DNA of 64,000 bases from Cyanobacteria bacterium LVE1205-1 (GTDB lineage: Bacteria > Cyanobacteriota > Cyanobacteriia > CAIUCS01). Positions 2,853-47,467 of the stretch are shown in pieces. Position 1 is the stretch's first letter. Each line of letters opens with the position of its first letter. The stretch covers positions 462,172-526,171 of the forward strand of contig CP089922.1 of NCBI GenBank assembly GCA_041879355.1, written 5' to 3'. The notes under the pieces are model-generated. The model was not told where the DNA came from, searched no databases, and saw only the letters and a list, made by a program, of their open reading frames with translations. A program made the position numbers and the translations under genes.

Positions 2853-3514
2853 TTATTCTTCCCGTTGAGAAGAAATAGACAAAACTCTTCCGGGGATATG
2901 GCTAATTGTATCCACAACAGCAGAGGCAGCTGCTAAAATATCTCTTTCTTCTCCTCCCAGGTATAACCGTCCAAAACTTCCCACTGCCTGGATTTCTAAA
3001 ATATTAATGAGTGCTGCTTTCTCAGCTTGATTCGCAGCGAGTGCTGCATAGGCAGCCGGAGTTACTTCAAATACATAAAGGGTTTGTCCAGAAAGAAGCA
3101 TTTGTCCCCGACGGGTGCGATTAATTAATTGGGTATGGTGAGGATCAATATTGCGAATAATCTGGCTGGAGACAATGGAAGGCTTAAGTCCATCAGACCG
3201 TTTAACCCCTAATGATTCTAAAATTGCCCGACCTGCTGCCTGGGCTTCCCCTTGTTTGCTAGAATGTATCTCAAGTAAGCCATATAAACGTTCCACAACT
3301 TGCACCCCGGTCGCACTACCGCCGCCTTTAATGCAATATCCATGATTCGATTAATCTCTATACCCGGTGAAATTTCAATCCATAATGATGTATCGCCAGG
3401 TAGGGGTAAGAATCCCACACATACCGTTCCTAGGTAGGCTGCGTGCTGGGGTTGTAAATTATCTAAATAGACATAACTTCGTAGTTCTATACCCAAAACT
3501 AAACTCCCATCCAA
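2853..3514 (-). CDS. ccmP: Tandem BMC-domain carboxysome shell protein, CcmP-like; frameshift near 3305 at a G run
   Basis: Two overlapping minus-strand ORFs (3218..3514, 2853..3305) that join as ...AAVVRPG|VQVVERLYG... if one G is added; both halves show BMC-like motifs ([27 protein letters not shown]). Confidence 0.55.
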
Positions 3515-3669
3515 ACCAATTGGATAGATTTTACCATTGGTTCAGCAACAACCAATGACAGAGAGTCCAATTCTTAGATTGATTTTCCATTTGGTTTTCA
3601 GTAGTGAAGCTGGAATCTGAAACATGAACTTTAACGAGTTGTATGGGACAGTAGGCAGGAATCATGCCC

Positions 3670-4870
3670 CTACACCCCATCCCACGAAAACCCAAAAACT
3701 CCTAACTTCTCTCGTAATAACTGTCCTTCCGGTGACCGCTGAGTTTCATATAAACTAATGGCCTGCTTGAAAGCCAAAAAACTATCTCTAACCTTACCTT
3801 GTTTAAAAGAACAACCCCCAGGTTTTGGTAAGCTTCAGCATATTCAGGCTGTAGGGCGATCGCCTTACGATACTGGACTATCGACTCAGGGAGTAGCCCC
3901 ATAGCTTTAAGAGCAGCCCCCAAATTAAAATAACCCACTGCAAAATCCGGTGCAATGGCAACCACCTTTTCATACAACATACAAGCTTCAGGCAAATCTC
4001 CCTTCCCCTGAAGTAAATTAGCCCAGTTATGGAGGGATCCTAACCGTAGGCGGGGGGAATCGGTTGTTTCCAAGCCATCTGGTAGTGAAATAAGGCTGAA
4101 TCAAATTGGTTTAATTCACTGTAGAAGGTGCCCAAATGAAAATGTAATTCATACTGAACAGCAGAATCAGCAACGGAAACCAATTCCAGCCCCCGATGTA
4201 ACAATCCTAATCCCCTTTCCCGATTTCCTATTTCCCAGCATAAGGCTCCAAATTTACTGTAGAGATAAGCATCATTGGGGTTATCGATTAAAGCCTGTTC
4301 TAAAATATCCTTTGCCCGATTAAACTTATCCTTACGATTGATGCGTTCGGGTTCATAACCTTTATGAAGTAAAGCAACGTCCTGAATGCAGCCCACCCGC
4401 CAGTGGGACTCCTGGTTCAAAATCACTTGAATGCTATCATCTACCAGTTCATGGTAGGGTCGATGAAAAAATATATCAGTTCTGTTGCGGAATAGCCGTG
4501 ACACTAGAGAATAGGGACTTTGATGGGAACCCAATTCATGGCGGAGTAAGTTGATCAGCAGGTAATCATCTTGTTGCATAGCCTGACGCAGTACCGGAAT
4601 CATATCAGGCACCACCACTTCATCGGCATCAAGTACTAATATCCAATCCCCTTTTGCATAACTGAGGGAGTGGTTACGGGCAGCGGCAAAGTCAGACCGC
4701 CAAGGGTAGGAATAAACCTGTACACCCCATTGTTGACCAATTTCAATGGTGGCATCAGTGGAACCCGTATCCACCAGTATCACTTCATCCGCTAACCCTT
4801 GAACGCTGGATAAACAACCAGGAAGTAACTCCGCCTCGTTTTTAACAATCATACATAGGCTTAGCTGCAT
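3670..4870 (-). CDS. Family 2 glycosyltransferase with C-terminal TPR repeats; frameshift at G6 run near 4045 and probably another near 3795, so the 3' end is uncertain
   Basis: N-terminus has GT2 motifs (CMIVKNEAELL, VDTGSTD, LDADE); downstream frames encode TPR repeats. Confidence 0.65.
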
Positions 4871-5001
4871 TTTCTGACCAGTTCTCCGATGTAATGGTTT
4901 CCTACCCCCTCAAGGCATCAGATCTTATGTAAGGTGGTATTCAGCTATCCCTGCTTTCCGTTAACGAGAACCAAGAAGACTACTGGCACCAACCAAGATG
5001 C

Positions 5002-5619
5002 TTATTTTAGAAACGTCGAAACTAACCAGACGATCAACAATGTCATCAGGGCGATAAAGTTATCTGGATTGAAATACATAGGATGTGGAACCAGTCCACT
5101 GAGTAAACTCCCCAAGGTTAAGCCTAAAATTAACCCTCCCAGGGACAAAAGAACTGACCTGCCGAATTTATTTTCTTTACGGTTCAAAAAGTAAAGGCTA
5201 CAACCACACCCCAAAGCCATGATTAATGGCAATAAAGTAGGATTTCCAGGTAGTAGGGTGAAGACTGATAAGGGTAAAAAGACACCTACAGATGCCAATA
5301 CTTCCTGCCGACTAGGATTATCAAGACAACGAACTAACCAGGCTGGGGATTTGGCATCTACTACAACCAATGGCTTGGTCATCGTCTGAATGGCTTGTTC
5401 AGGAAACCGAATACCGTCAGGAATCTTGATTTTCCCGGTTTGTCGCAGGCGGAGACGATCCATTAATACTGCATCATAAGCTGCTTCAATACTTTCTAAA
5501 ATTTGAGGATCGCCGCTATATTGTATAAACAGACGAGCCTTCGCTTGCTGAATTTCTTCAAAAGAAGCATCCTCGGCGACTCCGAGTTGCGTATAAGGGT
5601 TGAGTTGAGTCATTGACAT
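5002..5619 (-). CDS. CPP1-like J-like-domain membrane protein
   Basis: 205 aa; N-terminal J-like segment (NPYTQLGV...EEIQQAKARL) without HPD, hydrophobic C-terminal half. Confidence 0.45.
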   Translation of the reverse strand: MSMTQLNPYTQLGVAEDASFEEIQQAKARLFIQYSGDPQILESIEAAYDAVLMDRLRLRQTGKIKIPDGIRFPEQAIQTMTKPLVVVDAKSPAWLVRCLDNPSRQEVLASVGVFLPLSVFTLLPGNPTLLPLIMALGCGCSLYFLNRKENKFGRSVLLSLGGLILGLTLGSLLSGLVPHPMYFNPDNFIALMTLLIVWLVSTFLK

Positions 5620-8434: not shown

Positions 8435-9411
8435 ATGGGAATTATCAACTGGCTGAGCAACCCGGTTCACACATTGCCAAAAGTGGGCTTTAGAGTCTTT
8501 TCGATTTCGTGTTTAGTGGCAGGGTGGAACGGGGTTCCATCCCTAGCAGAACCTCCCCATGCTTCTATTGTTAGCTCTGTCAGTCCAAACACCCCTTTAC
8601 CATTGGAGCCAACATCTGCCCAATCCAATGGAATGAATTCCTCTGTTAATGTCCAAGTCCTTAATTCTTTCTCGTTCCCCACCCATCTTACAGTTCCGTC
8701 TTTTGCTCAATCCTTGGAAACAACGCCTCAACATGGAGAGAAATCTGGGGTTTTCTCGGGCTTGAGTGACATCTCTGTAACCACCCTTCCCCTTCAACTA
8801 GCCCAGTCTAAAATTGACGTACCTGCCCAAGTGGTAGAACACAGTCCAGTGTTACAGCGTTGGCAGCAAAAAACACCCAATGTTTTAGAGGAGATTGACT
8901 GGGATCCGGCTTTTCGCCCTAGGGTCAGATTTGGTTATACTTATTTCCCCAATGCCCATGACCTAGATGGATGGTCCTTGGGCATTGAAGATGTTTTTAT
9001 TGCCCGTACTCCCTTAACGGTGAGTACCGATTACAACGAAACATTTGATGGACGCCAGACGGGGGGCGGGGTGGATTTAAGATACTATTTTCTACCGTTG
9101 GGATGGTATGGGAATGTAGCCCCCACCATTGGGTATCGCAGCATCAGTACCCCCACTTATTCCACCGAAGGACTGAATCTGGGTTTACGGTTTATGTTAG
9201 CCCTATCCCGGGAGGGGCTGCAGACCTATCTATTAGCCAAAACTGGGTAGGGGTTGCCACTGATAATGAGGTTGGTGTATTTACATTTTCAGTCGGATAT
9301 GCCCTCACCCGTCAAGTGAGACTTTCGGCAGATTTACAAGAACAAAGTTCTAAACTACGGCAGGATACTCGTCTGGGAATTATGGTGGAATGGCTACCTT
9401 CCTTAGACTAA
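8435..9411 (+). CDS. Hypothetical secreted protein; two ORFs (8435..9250, 9103..9411) probably joined by a frameshift
   Basis: Hydrophobic N-terminal signal-like segment, Ser/Thr/Pro-rich linker, second frame continues without intervening stop; no family recognised. Confidence 0.35.
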
Positions 9412-10175
9412 TCTACCAGGGTTAGCCCTATTAGGAGTAATGATTCTGTCCATTCTACCACCGCTCCGTAGGTATCCCCAGTATGTCCTCCTAGTTGATG
9501 GTTAAACCACGCCCCAATTATATAAGCTATTCCCGGACCTAGTATCATTAGTCCCAGTGCCAATGACACTCCTAGCCACCATTGGGATCCATGAATGAGA
9601 AGGGTCATGCCGCTCAATAATAGTAGTATTAACCCACTGGGTATGGTATCCCTGAAGGAATTAACGGCATGGTGATGGAAGGCTCCCTTACCTGTAGGTT
9701 TTAGGTACGGATAGCGGGCGATCGCCACCATTTGTCCCCATCTACTCCAGCCCATAACCAATACCAAAATTAACCACCGAGATTGGTTGAGGTCATTTAA
9801 TGCGGATGTTTTAAGTAATAAAATAATAATTGCACTCATAGCTCCAAATGCTCCCGTAGCACTATCTGCCATCACAGCTAATCGTCTGGAGGGGTCTTGT
9901 ACCGCCAACCCATCGGCTGCATCCATTGCTCCGTCTAAGTGCAACCCCCCAGTAAGCCCTACCCATACTGCCACAACTAAACTACTCCTGGGCAAAGACG
10001 ACATTCCCAACCAACTGAGTCCAAAATCCAGACTAGTTAGAATACTGCCTAAAACCAGTCCCACTGCCACCACCCATCGCGCCGCCCACCGAAAATCTTT
10101 ACACCATCTAAGGGGCATGGGAAGGGTGCTATAGAAGGCGATCGCTGCGATAAATTCATGGAAAATCTGGGACAT
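9408..10175 (-). CDS. cobS: Adenosylcobinamide-GDP ribazoletransferase (cobalamin synthase) CobS
   Basis: Conserved GGHTGDTYGA motif, multi-pass membrane protein; start placed at internal Met (10175) because the ORF-track N-terminal extension is atypical. Confidence 0.7.
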   Translation of the reverse strand: MSQIFHEFIAAIAFYSTLPMPLRWCKDFRWAARWVVAVGLVLGSILTSLDFGLSWLGMSSLPRSSLVVAVWVGLTGGLHLDGAMDAADGLAVQDPSRRLAVMADSATGAFGAMSAIIILLLKTSALNDLNQSRWLILVLVMGWSRWGQMVAIARYPYLKPTGKGAFHHHAVNSFRDTIPSGLILLLLSGMTLLIHGSQWWLGVSLALGLMILGPGIAYIIGAWFNHQLGGHTGDTYGAVVEWTESLLLIGLTLVD

Positions 10176-10232
10176 ATTTGGAATGGAGAAAGAGCTGATA
10201 ATAATGAGTCTCAATGGCAGTTGATGATTGAC

Positions 10233-10280
10233 GAGAGTATCCCCATGTTGTACATTTGCCCTCAAAATTGGGATGCACCC
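10233..10280. repeat. Dispersed short repeat family A, compact 48-bp copy
   Basis: GAGAGTATCCCCATGTTGTACATTTGCCCTCAAAATTGGGATGCACCC; both arms of copy 1 are contiguous here. Confidence 0.7.
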
Positions 10281-10297
10281 TGATTGACAGAGGTCTG

Positions 10298-11293
10298 TCA
10301 AATCCGATTTAGTGCATCCAACACCGCGCCATGGATGGCACGGTTGCAAGCCACAATTCCAGAATTATTGACTAACTTGGAGCTACACCCAAAGTCCAAC
10401 CGGTTTCCCCGTGCATCAGTTACAATTCCTCCAGCTTCTTCAACAACGATGGCTCCAGCAGCATGATCCCAGATATTTTCCCGATAGTTGGGTTCTTTTT
10501 TCCAAATTAATCTGGTGTAGAGGGCGGCCTCTCCACAGGCGACAGCCCCATATTTTACCTGACTGTCTAACTGTAAAGGGGGTTCCCCCAGCCCAACTGC
10601 CTTAGCCAGTGCCCGTTGTCGTGGTAAATCACCATGCTCTGTTTCAATACTTTCTGTCAGTCGTAGTATAACTCCTTGCAAATCAGCGGATGCTCCAACC
10701 GGATAGGTTTGATGATCAGTTAGGGTGAATACCCGGGTACCTTGCCCACGGACAGCCACAAAAATAACCCCATGGACTATCCCTAGTCTGGGACTGACAG
10801 GGTGGGGGATGGAGAGTGCCGGACAACCCAATATGCCAACTTTAACTTCTCCTCCCTCTATCAACGCTAAAGCGATGGCATATTGGTCACCCCGAAGGTA
10901 GCCCTTGGTTCCGTCGATTGGGTCTAACGTCCAATATCGTTCCTGTACTTGGGCTCGTCCCAAATTAATGGATTCAACCACGGTAGATGGAGCAATACTT
11001 GGAAATACCAATTGCACATAGTTCGTTACCTGTTGCCAGTGTTCTGCCATTTCCGGTTGGAGCAATAAAGCCCCGCTTTCTTCTCCCACAATAGGGTCAT
11101 CGGGAAAATGGTCATGGATAATCTGACAAATCACAGCTTGAGCCGCAAAATCAGCGATAGTGACTGGACTGCTATCTGGTTTGGTAATTGCTTGTCCTGG
11201 TCGTTCCATTCGTACTCTTTCACAAATAGTCACCGCTGACTTTACGGCGGATAGGGCAATGGTTTGTTCTAAATCGTAGGAGAGGGGTGACAT
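10298..11293 (-). CDS. Inositol monophosphatase family protein, likely 3'(2'),5'-bisphosphate nucleotidase (CysQ/HAL2-like)
   Basis: 331 aa; motifs EESG, WTLDPIDGTKGY and a later GG..DAR region typical of the IMPase superfamily. Confidence 0.7.
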   Translation of the reverse strand: MSPLSYDLEQTIALSAVKSAVTICERVRMERPGQAITKPDSSPVTIADFAAQAVICQIIHDHFPDDPIVGEESGALLLQPEMAEHWQQVTNYVQLVFPSIAPSTVVESINLGRAQVQERYWTLDPIDGTKGYLRGDQYAIALALIEGGEVKVGILGCPALSIPHPVSPRLGIVHGVIFVAVRGQGTRVFTLTDHQTYPVGASADLQGVILRLTESIETEHGDLPRQRALAKAVGLGEPPLQLDSQVKYGAVACGEAALYTRLIWKKEPNYRENIWDHAAGAIVVEEAGGIVTDARGNRLDFGCSSKLVNNSGIVACNRAIHGAVLDALNRI

Positions 11294-18804: not shown

Positions 18805-19554
18805 ATGGTTATCGTAGCCAGCTTTTACAAATTTTTCCCCTTTCCTGACTCCATTCACCTCAGATCCGCTTGGCTCGCTTACTGTCAGGTTCAACAGATT
18901 CGGGGTACCATCCTCATGGCTCCGGAGGGGATTAATGCCACTATTTCAGGAAGTCGTGATGCAATCAATCAGGTGCTTCAGTATATTTGCAGCCATCCCG
19001 GTTTAAGTACATTAAAGCATCAGGAAAGTGTTTGGAATGTTCATCCCTTTGATCAGTTAAAGGTTAAGTTTAAACAAGAAATTGTTACCTTAGGAATGCC
19101 CACAGTTGATCCTAGTCAAGGTACCGGTGAGTTTGTTCATCCTTCAGATTGGAATGCTATTTTGACTGATCCAACTGTCACCGTGGTTGATACTCGTAAT
19201 ATCCATGAAGTGGAAATGGGTACTTTTTTTGGGGCAATCAATCCACAAATGTTTTGTTTTCGTCAGTTTCCCTATTATGCTAAGCAACAGTTAATGCCGT
19301 TGCAGTCAAAAAAAGTTGCTATGTTTTGTACCGGAGGAATCCGATGTGAAAAAGCCTCGTCCTATTTATTAAAGGAAGGTTTTAAACAGGTGTATCAATT
19401 AGACGGTGGCATTATTCATTATTTACAAACAGTCTCAAAATCAGACAGTCTTTGGCACGGGGATTGTTTCGTTTTCGACCAGCGCAATCATCTTAATCTT
19501 GAGCATAGGTCAACTTGGTTTGGGGTAAGTAGCCTTCCAAATCTGGTTAACTGA
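18805..19554 (+). CDS. trhO: Rhodanese-domain protein, tRNA uridine(34) hydroxylase TrhO-like (UPF0176)
   Basis: N-terminal VASFYKF, rhodanese active-site CTGGIRCEK. Confidence 0.7.
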   Translation: MVIVASFYKFFPFPDSIHLRSAWLAYCQVQQIRGTILMAPEGINATISGSRDAINQVLQYICSHPGLSTLKHQESVWNVHPFDQLKVKFKQEIVTLGMPTVDPSQGTGEFVHPSDWNAILTDPTVTVVDTRNIHEVEMGTFFGAINPQMFCFRQFPYYAKQQLMPLQSKKVAMFCTGGIRCEKASSYLLKEGFKQVYQLDGGIIHYLQTVSKSDSLWHGDCFVFDQRNHLNLEHRSTWFGVSSLPNLVN

Positions 19555-19606
19555 CAAAAGTTGTACGCCCTCACCCCTAACCCCTCTCCCAGGGGGCGAG
19601 GGTGGA
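19546..19606. repeat. Repeat family B, truncated copy (left half of the element at 40930..41077)
   Basis: CTGACAAAAGTTGTACGCCCTCACCCCTAACCCCTCTCCCAGGGGGCGAGGG nearly identical to 40933..40984. Confidence 0.75.
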
Positions 19607-25040: not shown

Positions 25041-25340
25041 TTCAAAAGCTGCTTCCCAAGATAAGTTTCCATCTGCATAACCATGGAAAGAAGTGACATA
25101 ATAATCGGGGTAGGATAAACCCGGAGTGGTAACCTGGCTGAGAATCCAAGGACCAATCTCGTGTATTTAAGAGTGCCACATGCCCTACCCAATCCACCCC
25201 AATTTGATAGGCTCGCTGGATCATCATTTGTTTAGCTTTGGTTTTCGCCCAGTTAGCAAGGGATGGGAAAGACAGGATTCTGTTTACGATGGAACTGGTA
25301 AAACCAATGGCTGGGGGAATGGGAATAGAAGATAAAAAAA

Positions 25341-26246
25341 TCATAATTCCAGCTTTTGTAACAAGGAGCGGGTGGATACAATATGTCGATGTAAGCCCAA
25401 CTGTTGGGGTGGGATCCCCAATGCCAGTCCAACTAATTGGGGCAGGTGTAAAATCGGCAACCCCAGTTTTTGTCCAGTCACTTGTTCCACTTCCGGTTGA
25501 CGAGAATCTAAGTTCAAATGACAAAGGGGACAGGGGGTAACAATACAATCAGCCCCATGGGCGATCGCTTCCTGTATATGTCCCCCTGCCAACTTAAAAG
25601 ATGATTCGGTGGCATAACTGGCAATTGGCCAGCCACAACATTGGGTTCGTCCCGAATAGTAGATTGGGGTTGCTCCCACTGCTCGAAATAGATTTTCCAT
25701 TGATTCTGGTTGAAATGGATCATCCAAGGGCAGATGTTTTTGTGCACGCAGTAAGTAGCAACCATAAAAAGCCGCACACCTCAAGCCAACCAAAGACTTG
25801 GTAATTTTTTCCTGAATTGCCTCCAACCCATAATCACCGACCAGAACCCATAATAAATGAGTCACGGTGGTAGTACCGTGATAAGGGCTGCATTGTTCTT
25901 TCCGGAGTAACCCATTAACGCGCTGGAAATAATCAGGATGATTAATTTTGGCATCCTTCAGCCGATCATCCACTTGCCCGATAACCCCTTGACAGGTACT
26001 GCAATGGGTTAAAAGCGGTAGTTTCAATTCTTCTGCCAAAGAAATATTACGGGCATTGACAGTGTCTTCTAAAAGCTGAGAGTCTTCCTTGAATGTTCCC
26101 GAACCGCAACAAGCGGCCTGCTTTAGTTCTATCAGTTCAATGCCTAGGGCTTTACTTAAGGATTGGGTGGATTGGTGTAACTCCCGACAAGCACCCTGGG
26201 CAACACAGCCGGGATAGTAAGCATATTTTAGAGGGGAGGTGGGCAT
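25341..26246 (-). CDS. CCG-domain cysteine-rich protein, heterodisulfide reductase subunit B-like
   Basis: Two cysteine-rich CCG-type segments (YPGCVAQGAC...CCGSG; FYGCYLL...CCGWP...PCPLCH). Confidence 0.7.
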   Translation of the reverse strand: MPTSPLKYAYYPGCVAQGACRELHQSTQSLSKALGIELIELKQAACCGSGTFKEDSQLLEDTVNARNISLAEELKLPLLTHCSTCQGVIGQVDDRLKDAKINHPDYFQRVNGLLRKEQCSPYHGTTTVTHLLWVLVGDYGLEAIQEKITKSLVGLRCAAFYGCYLLRAQKHLPLDDPFQPESMENLFRAVGATPIYYSGRTQCCGWPIASYATESSFKLAGGHIQEAIAHGADCIVTPCPLCHLNLDSRQPEVEQVTGQKLGLPILHLPQLVGLALGIPPQQLGLHRHIVSTRSLLQKLEL

Positions 26247-32709: not shown

Positions 32710-34378
32710 TCATCGCCAAAGGTCGGCTGCCTTAACCTGGGACATAGGACGTTTACCGGGGTTATAGTCTTTACCATAGTCATAGGGGTCAGGAACAAAG
32801 GGAGGCTCACCCAAATAATTTTCAATTGGCGGCGGAGAAAGGGTTTGCCATTCAGGAGAAATTGCATTCCAAGGGTTTGCTCCAGCCTTAGGACCCCTTA
32901 CCCAACTGTATACTGCATTAATAACAAATGGAATTGTTGAAACTGCCAAAAGGTAAGCACCAATGGAACAAATTAGATTAATTGCGGCAAATTGGGGGTC
33001 ATACTCCGCCACTCGACGAGGCATTCCAGCCAATCCCACCTTGTGCATTGGTAAAAAGCACAGGTTAAAACCAACTAAGGTTAAAACAAAATGCACCTTG
33101 CCCCACGTTTCATTGATCATACGACCCGTCATCTTGGGAAACCAGTGATAAATAGCTGCATAGAGACCAAAAACACTCCCCCAAAGAGGACGTAATGTAA
33201 ATGGGCAACTACGAAATAAGTATCATGGACATGAATATCAAAGGGAGCAGAGGCTAACATCACCCCACTTAATCCGCCAATGACAAACATGGAAACAAAT
33301 CCCATGGCAAATAACATCCCACTGTTAAGCCTCAGTTTGCCTCCCCACACCGTAGCCACCCAACTAAAGACTTTAATACCTGTGGGAACCGCAATCACCA
33401 TGGTGGCAACCATAAAAAACATTCGTAACCAACCGGGTACGCCGCTGGTAAACATATGATGAGCCCAAACGATTAAACCCAAGAAGCTAATTGCCAGACT
33501 GGAATAGGCGATCGCCTGATAGCCAAAAATTGGTTTTCGAGCATGAACGGGTAAGATTTCAGAGACCAACCCAAAAACTGGCAGAATCATAATGTATACC
33601 GCCGGGTGGGAGTAAAACCAGAACATATGTTGGTAAACAATTGGATCCCACCACCGGTTGGATTGAAAAAAGAAGTACCACCGATCAGGTCAAAGCATAG
33701 AAGGATTAGGGCTCCTGCTAAAACAGGAGTGGAAATCAGTACCAATGCAGAAGAGGATAACATTGCCCAACAAAAGAGGGGCATATTATTCAACCCAATT
33801 CCGGGTCTTCGCATCAGTAGAAGAGTGGTAATAAAGTTGACAGCTCCCAAAATGGAAGAAGTACCCAAAATTAATAAACTAAGAATCCAAATTAACTCTC
33901 CCCATTTACCATTCATGAGACTTAGAGGAGGATAGGATGTCCACCCAGATGCCGGGGCACCGACCAAAAAACTAGACATTAGTAAAATGCCACCAGGAGG
34001 AATTAACCAGAAGGCAATGGCATTTAAGCGGGGGAAAGCCATATCCCGTGCCCCAATCATTAATGGAAGGAGAAAATTACCAAACGCACCATTTGCCGCC
34101 GGTACAATCCATAGAAAGATCATGACCGTAGCATGCATGGTAAACAAACTATTGTATAGTTCACGGCTGACAAAATCCACTTCAGGGGTGGATAATTCCT
34201 TCCGAACTGCTGTAGCTAAAGCTCCACCAACGAGGTAGAACAAAAAAGATGTCACCAGATATTGAATACCAATCACCTTGTGGTCAGTATTGAATGTAAA
34301 GTAATCCCACCATTTTCGTTCCGTTAGCTCTGGAGATGGATTAACAGGGAGAATTCCGTCCAACTGGGCTGTAATCAT
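32710..34378 (-). CDS. ctaD: Cytochrome c oxidase subunit I; split into three ORFs by two apparent frameshifts
   Basis: ORFs 33587..34378, 33129..33626, 32710..33132 give a contiguous ~556-aa subunit I with His ligand regions (WAHHMF, HDTYFVVAHLHY). Confidence 0.9.
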
Positions 34379-38471: not shown

Positions 38472-40029
38472 TTAAAAGACTGGGGATTCTAGAGGCTCTA
38501 TTTCTTCATCCGTTTGTATCCTTGGCGGCGGAAAGTCTAGGGATCGTCCATAAATATCAGTGAAATACCGCAGGCGATGGCAAATTTCCTCACATTCTAC
38601 TGCCTCCGTGCGATATCGCCAATCCCAATTACCAGTGGCAGTCCCAGGGGTATTCATGCGTGCATCTGTCCCCAGTCCTAAAATGTCTTGAAATGGGAAT
38701 AAAGCCCAGTTGGCTACAGAACTCATGGCGTGACGGATCAAATCCCAATGAATACCATCGAAATTATTGTAACCTAAATAACTGCGGATATGGCGTTGTA
38801 AATCGTCGGATCGACTGTAAAACCAGCCCACAGTGGTGTCGTTATCATGGGTGCCTGTATAGACAATGGAGTTTTTCCGATACTGAAAGGTCAGATAGGG
38901 ATTTCGGGCATCTGAATCGAAGGCAAACTGCAAAATATTCATGCCGGGGAAATCAAAGCGATCGCGCAGGGCTTCCACCTCCGGGGTAATCACCCCTAAA
39001 TCTTCAGCCATAATGGGCAGGGAGCCTAGTTTTTGGGCTAAGGTTGTAAACAATTCCTCCCGGGAGCCTGCACCCATTCTCCATTTATAGCAGTGGTTTC
39101 CCCCTTTGGAACTGCCCAATAGGATTCAAAGCCACGAAAATGATCCACCCGGATCACATCTACAATCTCTAACATGGATTTAAACCGCTGTACCCACCAC
39201 TTAAATTGATTTTTTTTCAGATGCCTCCAGTTATAAACTGGATTGCCCCACAACTGTCCCGTTTTGCTGAAGTAATCAGGGGGAACACCTGCCATCAGCG
39301 CCACTTCTCCCGTTTTTTCATCCAAGTGAAAGTTTTCTGGATTTGCCCACACATCTGCACTATCGTGGGCTACATAAATGGGGATATCCCCAATAATGGT
39401 AATGCTTCGGTCATTGGCATAGGTTTTTAAGGCATTCCATTGACAATGGAATTGATATTGCAAAAATTGGTGATAAAAAATCTCATCAGTAAATTGTTTG
39501 CGGTATAAGGCTAAGGTTTCGGGTTTACGCTGCCGTAGATTTGGATCCCATTGATACCAGCTTTGATTAGGGTGAGCATACTTACACGCCATAAATAGGG
39601 CATAATCATCCAGCCAACTGGATTGATGGATGCAAAATTGTTCAAACTGTTTTTGAATTGCTGGGGTTGCCTGTTGCCGGAATCGGGCACATGCTAACCG
39701 AAATAACCCATCCTTAAAGGCAATCACCCCATCAAAATCAATATGATCCAGCGGAAAGTCAGGACTATTTGCCAGTTCAGATTTATCCAGCCATCCCTGC
39801 TCTTCCAATAATTCAGGACTAATGAGTAGGTGGTTACCGGCAAAGACGGAATAGGAAAGGTAGGGGAATTACCATATCCCGTAGGTCCTATGGGCAGGAT
39901 TTGCCAATAATGTTGATGACTGGACATCAAAAAATCAATGAACCGATAGGCAGATGAACCAAAATCTCCAATTCCATATGGACTGGGGAATGAACTGGGA
40001 TGGAGTAAAATTCCACTACCTCTGGGCAT
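38472..40029 (-). CDS. malQ: 4-alpha-glucanotransferase (disproportionating enzyme, GH77); split into three ORFs by apparent frameshifts
   Basis: ORFs 39724..40029 (GILLHPSS...GIGDFG), 39038..39808 (IIGDIPIYVAHDSADVW, VDHFRGF), 38472..39119 (EDLGVITPEV) are colinear. Confidence 0.85.
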
Positions 40030-40789
40030 AGTTTCACCTCGCTACAATTAAGAAAACAAAAAATGTGCTAATGAAAGTGACAACTCCCACCGTCAACCGC
40101 TAAGAGCGGTGTGAAGGGAGCTGCTCAAATTCACAAATGAGAGTTATTGTCTCACAGGCTGTGCATCCATTAAGCCTCCACCAGTAGCAAACGGTTGTCC
40201 TACCGTCCGTTCAAGTAGGTTCAAACTTGCGTTTAATCCCTGTCTAAACTGACTCCACCATTAGGGCAATCATGAACTCGAATCGACTGTTGCTTGTCTG
40301 ATGGGAAACCCGTCAAGAATTGGACGGTGGAGGACAACTGGAATCTCACCAATTTTTGACAGCTTTATATGCCATCTACTAAGTACACTCCAGCCTTTGG
40401 GCATTGACTTGAGGCAAGGTGAAAGAACAAATATCCCCCTGTTTCTTCAATCTAGGCTTACCTCCTCTCTTACCAGTTTTATCAGGAATTAACCACCCCT
40501 TCCAGGATTTATCCAACCCCATTATATTCTGTTGTTGGCAGTCAGCCTAAATCTCCTTGTACTCAGGAAATAATCCTAGCGTTTCTTTAAGGTCAGCCGC
40601 TTGTGAATAGTAATCTACGTTGCTTGGAATATCGCCAATTGGCTCACTTCCCAGACTGCAACGGTCGAACTGAGACCTGGTATAACGCAACAATTTTCCC
40701 CAGTGGTTCAAGGTCGCCCCCTGCAGGAGTGTTGGTTACAATCGGTACTGATATGTTAGTAGTATTATACTATTATCTTATTTAGTGCC

Positions 40790-40891
40790 ATGAGCTATAA
40801 CAAAGGCTATAGATGCCTATACTCCCTTACTATTGATTTAGTATTTGTCACAAAGTACCGCAAAAAGATAATTGACAAGGGGATCCTGTAA
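40790..40891 (+). pseudogene. IS200/IS605-family TnpA N-terminal remnant (33 codons)
   Basis: MSYNKGYRCLYSLTIDLVFVTKYRKKIIDKGIL resembles the TnpA N-terminus (HLVFVTKYRRKVL pattern); truncated, followed by repeat family B element. Confidence 0.4.
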
Positions 40892-40929
40892 AGATTGCAC
40901 GAAATCGTTGCTAATACCTGTGAACCTGG

Positions 40930-41077
40930 TTGACTGACAAAAGTTGTACGCCCTCACCCCCAACCCCTCTCCCAGGGGGCGAGGGGAGCCGATCCACCCC
41001 TCCCGGTTCCCTCTCCCATCGGGAGAGGGCTAGGGTGAGGGCTTTCGGGGTTTTGGCTGAGAAGTTTTGTCAGTCAA
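40930..41077. mobile_element. MITE-like element (repeat family B, full copy) with terminal inverted repeats
   Basis: TTGACTGACAAAAG at left, TTTTGTCAGTCAA at right; internal palindromes CCCTCTCCCAGGGGGCGAGGG and CCCTCTCCCATCGGGAGAGGG; left half repeated at 19546..19606. Confidence 0.7.
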
Positions 41078-41140
41078 TCAGGCTTCTCACCAATCCCCAC
41101 TCGCCAGGGTACTAATTCAAACCTAGTCAACAAATCCAAT

Positions 41141-41172
41141 CAACAAAAAAGGTGTGGACAATGTCCACACCT
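41141..41172 (-). terminator. Rho-independent terminator downstream of psbA
   Basis: Perfect hairpin GGTGTGGACA/TGTCCACACC followed on the minus strand by a T6 run, about 30 nt after the psbA stop. Confidence 0.7.
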
Positions 41173-41198
41173 TTTGTCATTCATCCCATCAACTCAAA

Positions 41199-42281
41199 TT
41201 AACCATGGATAGCAGGGGCAACCATTGCCACAGGCGCTACCTCACCCGCTGCCAAATCCAAGGGGAAATTGTGCGCATTCCGCTCATGCATCACTTCCAT
41301 CCCTAAATTCGCACGGTTGATAATATCCGCCCATGTATTAATCACACGACCCTGTGCATCAATCACTGATTGGTTAAAATTAAACCCATTCAAATTGAAT
41401 GCCATGGTACTCACTCCCAATGCAGTAAACCAAATCCCAATCACTGGCCACGCACCTAAGAAAAAGTGCAATGAACGTGAATTGTTGAAACTCGCATACT
41501 GGAAAATTAATCGTCCAAAATAACCATGGGCAGCAACTATGTTGTAAGTCTCTTCCTCTTGCCCAAACTTATATCCATAGTTCTGTGACTCACTCTCCGT
41601 CGTCTCACGCACTAACGATGATGTCACCAATGAACCATGCATCGCTGAAAATAAACTACCTCCAAATACACCCGCTACCCCTAACATGTGGAAAGGATGC
41701 ATCAATATGTTGTGCTCCGCCTGAAACACAATCATAAAATTAAATGTACCTGATATACCTAATGGCATCCCATCCGAAAACGAACCCTGTCCAATGGGAT
41801 AAATTAAAAATACAGCAGTCGCCGCTGATACTGGCGCACTGTACGCAACACATATCCATGGACGCATCCCTAACCGATAACTCAATTCCCATTGACGCCC
41901 TAAATAACAAAATACGCCAATTAAAAAATGAAAAATTACTAACTGGTACGGTCCACCATTGTATAACCACTCATCCAATGACGCAGCTTCCCAAATCGGA
42001 TAAAAATGCAACCCAATCGCATTACTAGATGGAACTACCGCACCAGATATAATATTGTTCCCATACAGTAAAGAACCCGCTACCGGTTCCCGTATACCAT
42101 CAATATCAACTGGCGGCGCAGCAATAAATGCAATAATGTAACAAACAGTCGCTGATAGCAAGGTAGGAATCATCAGTACCCCAAACCAACCTACATATAA
42201 TCGGTTGTTAGTACTGGTAATCCAGCTACAGAATTGCTCCCATGCGCTAGCGCTCTGGCGCTGTTGCAATGTCGTTGTCAT
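41199..42281 (-). CDS. psbA: Photosystem II D1 protein
   Basis: 360 aa; essentially full-length D1 including C-terminal processing extension. Confidence 0.97.
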
Positions 42282-45272: not shown

Positions 45273-46973
45273 ATGGAGCTTTCCTCTGAACCCATTCAGA
45301 ATTCTAGTCTACCCCAAGAGCATCACCCCCCCGACCACGGGATGATGGGGGCGGGGATGACGATACTCACTGGAACGCCCCCATAGGTGAAATCTTAGCT
45401 TGGATCAGTCACGAGTTTAAACCCCCTCACTGCTATCCTCGGATTATCGAGCTTATTAAAAGAACAAGATTTAGGGGAACTAAGCGATCGCCAGCTTCAT
45501 TATATTAATTTAATTCATCAGAGTGGAAGTCATTTAATTCTGTTGTTAAATGAAATACTCTTATTCACTCAACTTCAATCTGGTTCGGTGGAACTCTATC
45601 CCACGAAAGTAGACGTTGAACGAACTTGTCAATATACGTTTGACAGTGCCAGGGAGTTATTCCAAGCCAACCCCTCAACAAATCATTCAAACGTAGAAAT
45701 ATACTTTGATTCCCATTCAGTACAGGACAGTATTGATATTGATCCAGGTTTGGCATGGGTGATCACTGATGAATTACGTTTGCGCCAAATGTTGGTTTAT
45801 CTATTAACCACTGCTCTTAAATTAAGTGATTCCAGCATTGATATAAAACTCCAGGTCCACCAATGGGATCAGCATTGGATTGGATTCACTGTTTGTTATC
45901 GGGGAGTTTGTTTTCCCAGAGAAAAAAATGGGTTACCCCATCATTTTCCAGAATTTTCCCCTTCCTCCCCAAATCCATTTGAAGGGAGTTATTTAGGATT
46001 AGTATTGATGCAACGTTTAACCCATCTCCAAGGGGGAATGGTTACTGTTCGTTCAATTGGGGAACAAAGGAGTGAATGTACCCTATTGCTACCATGTAAA
46101 TACGAAACCCTGGGAGTTGGCATCCCCCATCTGGGTGGCGAAACGGTTACTTCATTAGTGGTGGTAGAGCCCACCAGTTATGAATTAATTTTACTGGCAC
46201 AAGACGATCCATGGATAATTGAGAGTTTGTCGGCACAATTACTTGAATTGGGATATCGGGTGGTAAATGGTTATACCTGCTCGGATGTGTTGCGCAAGGC
46301 TCGATTACTACAACCCAGAGCGATTTTACTCAGTGCATCGTTATGGGCTAACTCTCAGTTTTCCTTGTTTGATTTACTCCATGACTGTCCAGAAACTTGC
46401 CATATTCCCCTGGTGATGACTGTCCAGGAAACAGAACCATCAGCCTTCCCTAGGGAGGGGGAGAGGGAAATGATTCAATTACCCATATCGTTATCCAAAC
46501 TTGACGCAACAGTCCGAAAAAATTCTTCCATCGTTGTTGTATCGGAACAAATCTTACCCCCCAACCTGACCATATTACAGTTATTAGACAATCATCATCA
46601 GGGTGAACCCCAGTATGGTTTAGGATGGATTGGGAATTTATTTCATCAAAAGCACTATCGCTTAATCGAAGCGGAGGAATTGGAACAGGCTAATTTATTA
46701 GCACGAATTTGGAAGCCAGATTTGTTATTACTAACCACTTGGGATAAGCGGGAAGGTTTTTGGCAATTCTTTGAGTTTCTCCAGGATTATGATGGGCTCT
46801 CTCCATTACCATTGGTAATTCTTAATCATTGTTCCCATAGGATAAATCCCGTCCAGGGGCTATCCCTATTGATTTGCCCCATTAGTCATCTAGACAGGAC
46901 AGAAGACTATTGGATCCATCCTGATGCCTTGAATTTATGCAAAACTTTGCGACGGGCTGTTACTTCCCATTAA
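45273..46973 (+). CDS. Histidine-kinase-like protein with degenerate ATP-binding motifs and two pseudo-receiver domains; two frameshifts at C7 (about 45322) and C5 (about 45420) runs
   Basis: After frame correction the H-box reads ISHEFKPPLTAILG; N-box Asn replaced (YLLTTALK), G1 reads YRGVCF, G2 reads GSYLGLVL; two receiver-like segments lack the phospho-acceptor Asp. Confidence 0.55.
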
Positions 46974-46996
46974 ATTCTTCATTTCGGTCAATCATA

Positions 46997-47467
46997 ATGA
47001 AACCCACAGCCAATATTTTTACCAAGGGAAGTACCACCCAAATTTCGGTTGCAGTGGCAATTCTTGTTCAGAAAGGACAGTATCTTTTACAATTACGAGA
47101 CGAGATTCCCACCATTGTTTATCCGGGGGTTTGGGGATTATTTGGTGGGCATTTGGAAAATGGGGAAACACCAGAAGCCGGAATTGAACGGGAATTATGG
47201 GAGGAAATTGGATATTGTCCATCTGACTTAACGTTATTTGGTTGTTATGGAGATATTAGGGTTCTCCGGTACGTATTTTATGGATGTCTTGATGTACCCT
47301 TGATGGCGTTATCCCTACAGGAAGGCTGGGATATGCAGTTGTGGGGTGTTGATGAGATTTTTAAAGGGGAACGTTTATCGGACTGTTCTGGTGATTGCCG
47401 TCCCATTGCCCAACCCCATCGAACTATATTAAACGATTTCTTAAGGATTTATCCCCAGAATTGCTGA
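46997..47467 (+). CDS. NUDIX hydrolase
   Basis: Nudix box GGHLENGETPEAGIERELWEEIG; start placed at Met 46997. Confidence 0.8.
   Translation: MKPTANIFTKGSTTQISVAVAILVQKGQYLLQLRDEIPTIVYPGVWGLFGGHLENGETPEAGIERELWEEIGYCPSDLTLFGCYGDIRVLRYVFYGCLDVPLMALSLQEGWDMQLWGVDEIFKGERLSDCSGDCRPIAQPHRTILNDFLRIYPQNC

Follow-up and report, generated by a model that had tools for sequence, protein, structure and literature searches.

Between psbA and malQ, at positions 40077-40924 of the window (by which we mean the whole 64-kb stretch of DNA analysed here), lies a dead IS605-type insertion sequence, a member of the IS200/IS605 family reduced to a remnant; we assign this reading a probability of about 95%. The segment descends from an element with a Y1 transposase gene (tnpA) and a tnpB gene, is bounded sharply at its right end (RE), carries inactivating lesions in both genes and lacks a left end (LE). 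Because it has neither a left end nor TnpA, this copy would be unable to transpose, and we infer that it is immobile and makes no protein. As a decayed insertion sequence it is of a commonplace and already well-known kind, and it is best annotated as an IS200/IS605-family remnant made up of tnpB and tnpA pseudogenes and RE/omega-RNA, rather than as unexplained intergenic sequence or a candidate regulatory RNA.

A decayed IS605-type element between psbA and malQ

The region is flanked by a minus-strand gene at 41199-42281, which we take to be psbA from its D1 sequence, and by malQ (4-alpha-glucanotransferase), which ends at 40029 on the minus strand and whose identity is backed by Pfam (GH77). 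No intact ORF is present over 40030-40790. A preliminary description of this stretch had likewise seen no convincing ORF in it and had called it non-coding, a label that is correct as far as intact ORFs are concerned but overlooks that the region is pseudogene sequence. Three-frame translation of the minus strand gives segments typical of TnpB (LLTYQYRL*PT..., ...YYSQAADLKETLGLFPEYKEI*ADCQQQN..., ...GKRGGKPRLKKQGDICSF..., ...KLSKIGEIPVVLHRPI... and the C-terminal ...LNLLERTVGQPFATGGG...QPV), and the startless but protein-like reading that had been remarked on around 40560..40700 of this strand is the TnpB N-terminus, without its start codon. The concatenated conceptual minus-strand translation was used as a protein query and matched 74 TnpB/InsQ homologues with 54-84% identity (best E value 6e-59). 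These homologues carry the Pfam domains HTH_OrfB_IS605 (PF12323) and OrfB_IS605 (PF01385) and are named in their sources as "RNA-guided endonuclease InsQ/TnpB family protein" (Nostoc) or "transposase" (Microseira). The homology to TnpB was clear only with the concatenated translation; a Pfam scan of the short translated TnpB fragments gave no match.

Relatives of the element were collected by scanning one genome per species, which returned 253 related places, of which 80 loci (L001-L080) were kept; all are cyanobacterial except a few MAGs labelled otherwise. The tnpB gene is uninterrupted in nearly all of them, mostly encoding 414-423 aa, and the full-length proteins contain HTH_OrfB_IS605, OrfB_IS605 and Cas12f1-like_TNB domains, with Pfam placing OrfB_IS605 at residues 194-303 and TNB at residues 315-380 of intact TnpB. 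A subset of the loci also encodes a divergent 135-aa tnpA product with a Y1_Tnp match (E value 1e-42). Intact members are about 1.8 kb long and consist of a left-end hairpin, tnpA, a 26-nt spacer, tnpB and the right end; the spacer measures 26 nt in the intact locus L001 and 24 nt in the window copy. The region aligns to the intact elements of the 80 loci in two blocks. By blastn, window positions 40924->40288 correspond to locus positions 3840-4525, a stretch that runs from the 5' 135 nt of tnpA across the spacer into the first ~525 nt of tnpB, and window positions 40281->40075 correspond to locus positions 5074-5279, the last ~200 nt of intact elements. Comparison with other cyanobacterial genomes, proposed in the preliminary description as a check, has thus confirmed one of its two suggestions, a "decayed mobile element", and the 74 TnpB homologues agree with it. 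The IS200 tnpA remnant that it placed at the 3' side is also present, as a Y1 transposase remnant beginning at 40790 and belonging to the same element. The coding remnants and the sites associated with them are as follows.

40790..40924, plus strand: tnpA (Y1/HUH transposase) remnant, codons 1-45 of 135
40791->40764, minus strand: promoter-like site ATGGCA-16-TATAAT in the divergent tnpA/tnpB spacer, a consensus match only
40285..40765, minus strand: 5' fragment of the tnpB pseudogene, TnpB residues 1-176 (tblastn, 65-75% identity, E value 2e-57)
40282..40288, minus strand: junction of the ~550-bp internal tnpB deletion, with TCG(G/A)TT microhomology (blastn and multiple alignment)
40108..40295, minus strand: 3' fragment of the tnpB pseudogene, TnpB residues ~354-416 in two frames (tblastn, 65-75% identity)

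The tnpB pseudogene has lost its start codon (ATA for ATG, 40765-40763) and is interrupted by a stop at codon 10 and by a TAG near 40550 (40549-40551). After ~40688 a 45-nt in-frame deletion has removed residues 28-42, and three 1-nt deletions are found near 40403, 40370 and 40237. The ~550-bp deletion takes out the RuvC-I and RuvC-II motifs together with the beginning of the zinc-finger/TNB domain. When the intact TnpB of L018 (locus positions 4001-5254) was used in tblastn, residues 1-139, 149-176, 354-373 and 374-416 were recovered, and the 64-kb window contained no TnpB sequence beyond these four segments. A TnpB combines HTH, OrfB_IS605/RuvC and zinc-finger TNB domains, and the window copy lacks this combination, with only residues 1-176 and 354-416 left.

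The tnpA remnant has a stop at codon 34 (40889-40891), and both the HUH motif and the catalytic Tyr are absent from it. Four intact TnpA proteins matched it by tblastn over residues 1-45 with 64-73% identity (E values 1e-14 to 2e-20) and found no further TnpA sequence in the 64-kb window; the Pfam Y1_Tnp profile reached an E value of 0.012 and 16 bits, under the cut-off of 23. The gene breaks off at 40924/40925, at the start of a 158-bp hairpin element. Intact relatives possess a conserved LE hairpin (GGGTACTCCCGCCACA...TTGGCGGTGA), which has no significant match anywhere in the 64-kb window.

Like IS605 and IS608 of Helicobacter pylori and ISDra2 of Deinococcus radiodurans, the element has a tnpA of Y1 (HUH) descent, reduced here to a remnant, next to tnpB. 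It resembles IS605 in the divergent orientation of the two genes and presumably in the absence of terminal inverted repeats, the left junction being lost in the window copy, and it shares with IS605-type elements in general the sharp right-end boundary, the extension of tnpB almost to the right end and, in the intact relatives, similar subterminal hairpins at LE and RE. The window copy differs from these members in the absence of LE, in a tnpA reduced to 45 codons, in the loss of the tnpB catalytic core and in its nonsense and frameshift lesions, and by sequence it falls within a lineage found in cyanobacteria (Microseira, Chamaesiphon, Nostoc, Scytonema and others).

Some of the lesions recur in other copies. 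The proteins closest to the window copy, P0004 and P0013/P0020 (82-84% identity), have the 45-nt in-frame deletion in common with the window and with the sibling remnant L081, and P0004 also has the first 1-nt frameshift of the window copy (...VNAQRLGCT*). The neighbourhoods of P0004 and P0013/P0020 differ (ADH/NurA and DUF815/TerB_C). The sharing of lesions at unrelated genomic sites suggests that the window copy belongs to a sub-lineage that was still spreading after its tnpB had been damaged, which would be compatible with the finding that TnpB is dispensable for TnpA-driven transposition (PMC13565253). At the DNA level, two sibling remnants, L081 (1-1210; ENA ERZ28656192) and L082 (2698-3774; ENA ERZ27313396), are 82-94% identical to the window remnant, and the internal tnpB deletion is different in each, which argues for independent decay and not for one amplified derivative. 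L081 contains two right-end fragments (3-214 and 1143-1207) flanking a 121-aa ORF.

The right end and its candidate omega-RNA scaffold

The scaffold at the right end is the best preserved part of the element, yet it is drifting. In an alignment of 75 related right ends and the window copy (76 rows), conservation stops sharply after TGTCAC and the flanks are unrelated; the conserved terminus reads ...G(A/G)GAGTTGTCAC. The window copy has both the sharp RE boundary and the subterminal hairpin that characterize IS605-type elements, and 47 nt separate the boundary at 40077 from the malQ ATG. The following features belong to this end and to the host DNA next to it.

40077..40219, minus strand: RE and candidate omega-RNA (reRNA) scaffold region, with the boundary after ...GGGAGTTGTCAC at 40077
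40189..40208, minus strand: helix H2 of the scaffold, GGACGGT-AGGACA-ACCGTTT, a 7-bp local hairpin
40090..40117, minus strand: subterminal RE hairpin H7/H8, with compensatory changes in 8 of 9 pairs
40030..40076, minus strand: host DNA between RE and the malQ start codon, with no similarity to related elements past 40077
40076->40057, minus strand: TTTCATTAGCACATTTTTTG, the first ~16-20 nt of the host flank, in the putative omega-RNA guide position
TTTCATTAGCAC: RE-side host sequence of the expected empty site, there joined to the LE-side target

The host flank 3' of RE starts with TTTCA in the window (40072-40076) as well as in L082 (3775-3779), L021 and L032, which may be a coincidence or a target preference.

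The ~40 codons at the end of tnpB lie within the scaffold, which stops at the RE boundary. A consensus structure computed with RNAalifold from 68 sequences spans ~140 nt and contains 33 pairs; compensatory double changes are seen in 20 of them. On this consensus, 97.7% of the cells are paired, compared with 27-55% when the partners are slid by 1-3 columns, and the covariation score is 0.402 compared with 0.03-0.09 in the slid controls; none of 500 column shuffles reached the observed values. Helix H2 is paired in 99.6% of cases across the 68 sequences, has three pairs with compensatory changes and also forms in the single-sequence fold. Since the scaffold overlaps coding sequence in intact copies, its conservation is partly at the protein level, but conservation of the overlapping tnpB product would not explain the compensatory changes of pairs.

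A covariance model (R1; 140 positions, 32 pairs) was trained on 64 intact right ends, leaving the window copy out. It matched the window once, at 40077-40219 on the minus strand, over its full length and with 116 bits (E value 6e-30); the corresponding scores are 147-162 bits for intact copies and 123 bits for a sibling remnant. Of the 33 consensus pairs, 29 are intact in the window copy, the four losses falling in H3 (two of its five pairs), H5 and H7 (one pair each). No pair is broken in 40 of the 68 sequences, and only four others break as many as the window copy, mostly through apparent alignment shifts. The changes in H3 are common to the window and its sibling L081, and the G-to-T change in H7, which breaks pair 193/220, is unique to the window. 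When the window scaffold is folded as a single sequence, H2, H4/H5, H6 and the terminal hairpin form (z-score only -1.6), and H3 is largely lost.

The ends of IS200/IS605 elements are single-stranded DNA (ssDNA) hairpins recognised by TnpA, and the omega-RNA runs from the 3' part of tnpB through the right end into ~16 nt of flank that act as guide (PMC13565253). The stem CCCGCCA...TGGCGGTG (CCCGCCA/TGGCGG) of the RE hairpin recurs in LE of intact elements, and R1 gives a weak match to LE of L018 (3345-3483, 23.7 bits), both of which fit this known end architecture. By analogy, the H7/H8 hairpin probably serves TnpA as its binding site in ssDNA form and, in the transcript, would belong to the omega-RNA.

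We infer that the scaffold acts as the omega-RNA for TnpB in this family, from the analogy with ISDra2 and IS608 together with the covariation, since its position, length and structure match those of TnpB omega-RNAs (reRNAs). Such RNAs were reportedly described in 2021, by Karvelis and by Altae-Tran. As in these RNAs, a structured segment of ~140 nt lies over the tnpB 3' end and ends exactly at RE with host flank in the guide position, and the family structure is backed by many compensatory changes. The window copy departs from them in having four disrupted pairs, no cognate TnpB nearby and no Rfam family. The RNA family scan envisaged in the preliminary description turned up no relevant match: run in E-value mode, Rfam gave nothing relevant either in the window at 39500-41700 or in the intact L018 at 3400-5400. 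Literature on this cyanobacterial TnpB lineage or its omega-RNA was limited in our search to general reviews. The 64-68 aligned intact right ends supply a covariation-backed scaffold model (e.g., L018 5137-5276) for a TnpB lineage that is widespread in cyanobacteria and missing from Rfam.

The long-range inverted repeat and the competing readings

The preliminary description had also drawn attention to a long-range inverted repeat (40194..40212 with 40321..40337), to a further pairing at about 40088 and to the possibility of a "structured RNA". The complementarity itself is present: GTTGTCCTACCGTCCGTTC at 40194-40212 and GGACGGTGGAGGACAAC, which lies one base away from the position first given, at 40322-40338, can pair over 15 bp around a 2-nt bulge (RNA duplex of -25.6 kcal/mol), and CCACCGTC is found at 40087-40094. 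The first arm is the local hairpin H2, the second consists of the PVVLHRP codons in the N-terminal part of TnpB, and CCACCGTC is the 3' arm of the right-end hairpin H7/H8. The repeat is no better than chance: when the 761-nt region was shuffled 1000 times with its dinucleotides preserved, 573 of the resulting sequences contained an inverted repeat with at least an equal gapped alignment score. The best duplex between 30-nt windows in 120 shuffles averaged -27.2 +/- 2.1 kcal/mol, stronger than -25.6, and the region's own best pair of 30-nt windows (-28.0) is located elsewhere than the two arms. The repeat is not conserved either. Across 67 intact elements an element's own arms pair with -12.5 kcal/mol, compared with -12.1 when the partner is taken from another element, and covariation gives the repeat no support. 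The arms are about 670 nt apart in intact elements and within 110 nt of each other in the window, where they have come close because of the internal tnpB deletion. The complementarity between 40194-40212 and 40322-40338 is coincidental. A role of the repeat as a long-range pairing of the omega-RNA was considered and rejected, as the complementarity is absent in intact elements; the covarying scaffold structure consists of local helices, and the proposed long-range pairings, including that at 40088, lie outside it. What stands of the structured-RNA suggestion is the segment 40077-40219 on the minus strand, a covarying candidate omega-RNA scaffold and RE in the relatives, and not the long-range fold.

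These results bear directly on the view that the region is a host structured RNA, such as a malQ leader or an sRNA, with its fold set by the 40194-40212/40322-40338/40087-40094 repeats. The 15-bp bulged duplex of -25.6 kcal/mol is real, and the region lies directly 5' of malQ on the same strand, but a repeat at chance level in both the shuffling and the thermodynamic test, arms that do not covary across 67 homologous elements, that are ~670 nt apart in intact elements and that have another explanation (codons of TnpB for one, a local hairpin of the omega-RNA for the other), and the lack of an Rfam match make it very improbable. Still harder to credit is that tnpB is broken only through sequencing or assembly errors. 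Two 1-nt frameshifts do interrupt the adjacent malQ, one of them probably within a homopolymer run, which makes indel errors conceivable; however, neither the 550-bp and 45-nt deletions nor the substitutions affecting the start codon and creating two nonsense codons are indel errors, nor is the loss of 90 tnpA codons and the left end, and independent assemblies (L081, L082, P0004 and P0013) have similar or shared lesions. Siblings that share the 45-nt deletion at different genomic sites, together with a transposition process that does not need TnpB (PMC13565253), could be taken to indicate a non-autonomous deletion derivative that is still mobile with TnpA supplied in trans. The remnant does resemble PATEs and other MITE-like derivatives of IS200/IS605 elements in its internal deletion, its retained structured right end and its sibling copies at several loci. 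PATEs, though, keep both ends, and here the left end is lost and absent from the whole window. Transposition of IS200/IS605 elements requires both end hairpins. As the internal deletions also differ among the siblings, continued mobility of this copy is highly unlikely.

The scaffold could alternatively persist as an orphan omega-RNA: it would still be transcribed, and an intact same-family TnpB encoded at another genomic locus would take it up in trans. Transcription might then start from the surviving putative tnpB promoter, or the RNA may be part of the malQ leader. Consistent with this, no other part of the remnant is as well preserved as the scaffold (116-bit model match, 29 of 33 pairs), a promoter-like consensus match survives upstream of it, and intact TnpBs of the same family are common in cyanobacteria. 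We nevertheless regard continued activity as unlikely: the consensus structure is disrupted at four pairs, with H3 losing two of its five and the right-end hairpin one, the model score is ~30-45 bits under that of intact copies, the 64-kb window contains no intact TnpB, and a well-kept end would be expected anyway as the youngest-looking part of a neutral remnant. If the orphan omega-RNA were active, a dead transposon copy would provide a guide RNA against the sequence upstream of malQ or against the empty site, with cleavage guided to sequences matching the 40076->40057 flank.

Under the preferred reading of a dead IS605-type remnant, an element with divergent tnpA and tnpB would have inserted between psbA and malQ and split malQ from its former upstream sequence. 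The left end and two thirds of tnpA have been lost, with the break adjoining the 158-bp hairpin at 40925; tnpB has been left without its start codon and ~550 bp, and stops and frameshifts have been gained in tnpB and a stop in tnpA. The scaffold may once have served as omega-RNA and as TnpA substrate. The remnant lies 47 nt 5' of a frameshifted malQ, and the locus may therefore record insertional silencing followed by decay of that gene, if the frameshifts are real.

malQ and other sequences around the remnant

The malQ sequence (38472-40029, minus strand) is divided into three ORFs covering positions 1-51, 68-310 and 304-463 of the Pfam GH77 profile, corresponding to two frameshifts. The first frameshift is located between the GNSP and AGN codons, probably in a G4 run at 39863-39866, and the second lies near 39100. 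The nearby hisS, psbA and ABC-transporter genes are intact. The splitting of malQ reflects either a true pseudogene, possibly formed after insertional silencing, or a homopolymer sequencing error. Pairs of long, slightly overlapping ORFs on the same strand were also observed at 9408-11293, 25042-26246, 33129-34378 and 45543-47467; these may represent either more frameshifted genes or true gene overlaps, and they bear on whether the malQ frameshifts are biological.

Just past the psbA stop, positions 41147-41175 (minus strand) form a perfect 13-bp hairpin followed by a T-run, which is likely the intrinsic terminator of psbA. Weak Rfam matches at these positions (sraA and others) were rejected as being caused by this terminator-like hairpin.

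The 158-bp element that adjoins the tnpA break (40925-41082) is a near-perfect, MITE-like long hairpin with a G+C-rich core and the termini GGTTGACTGACAAAAG.../...CTTTTGTCAGTCAATC, and its DNA fold has a z-score of -5.75. An Rfam match of it to mir-150 (29.5 bits) is below the gathering threshold and was discarded as spurious. The 63-nt left half of this hairpin occurs a second time in the window with 95% identity, at 19540-19602, within a convergent intergenic spacer.
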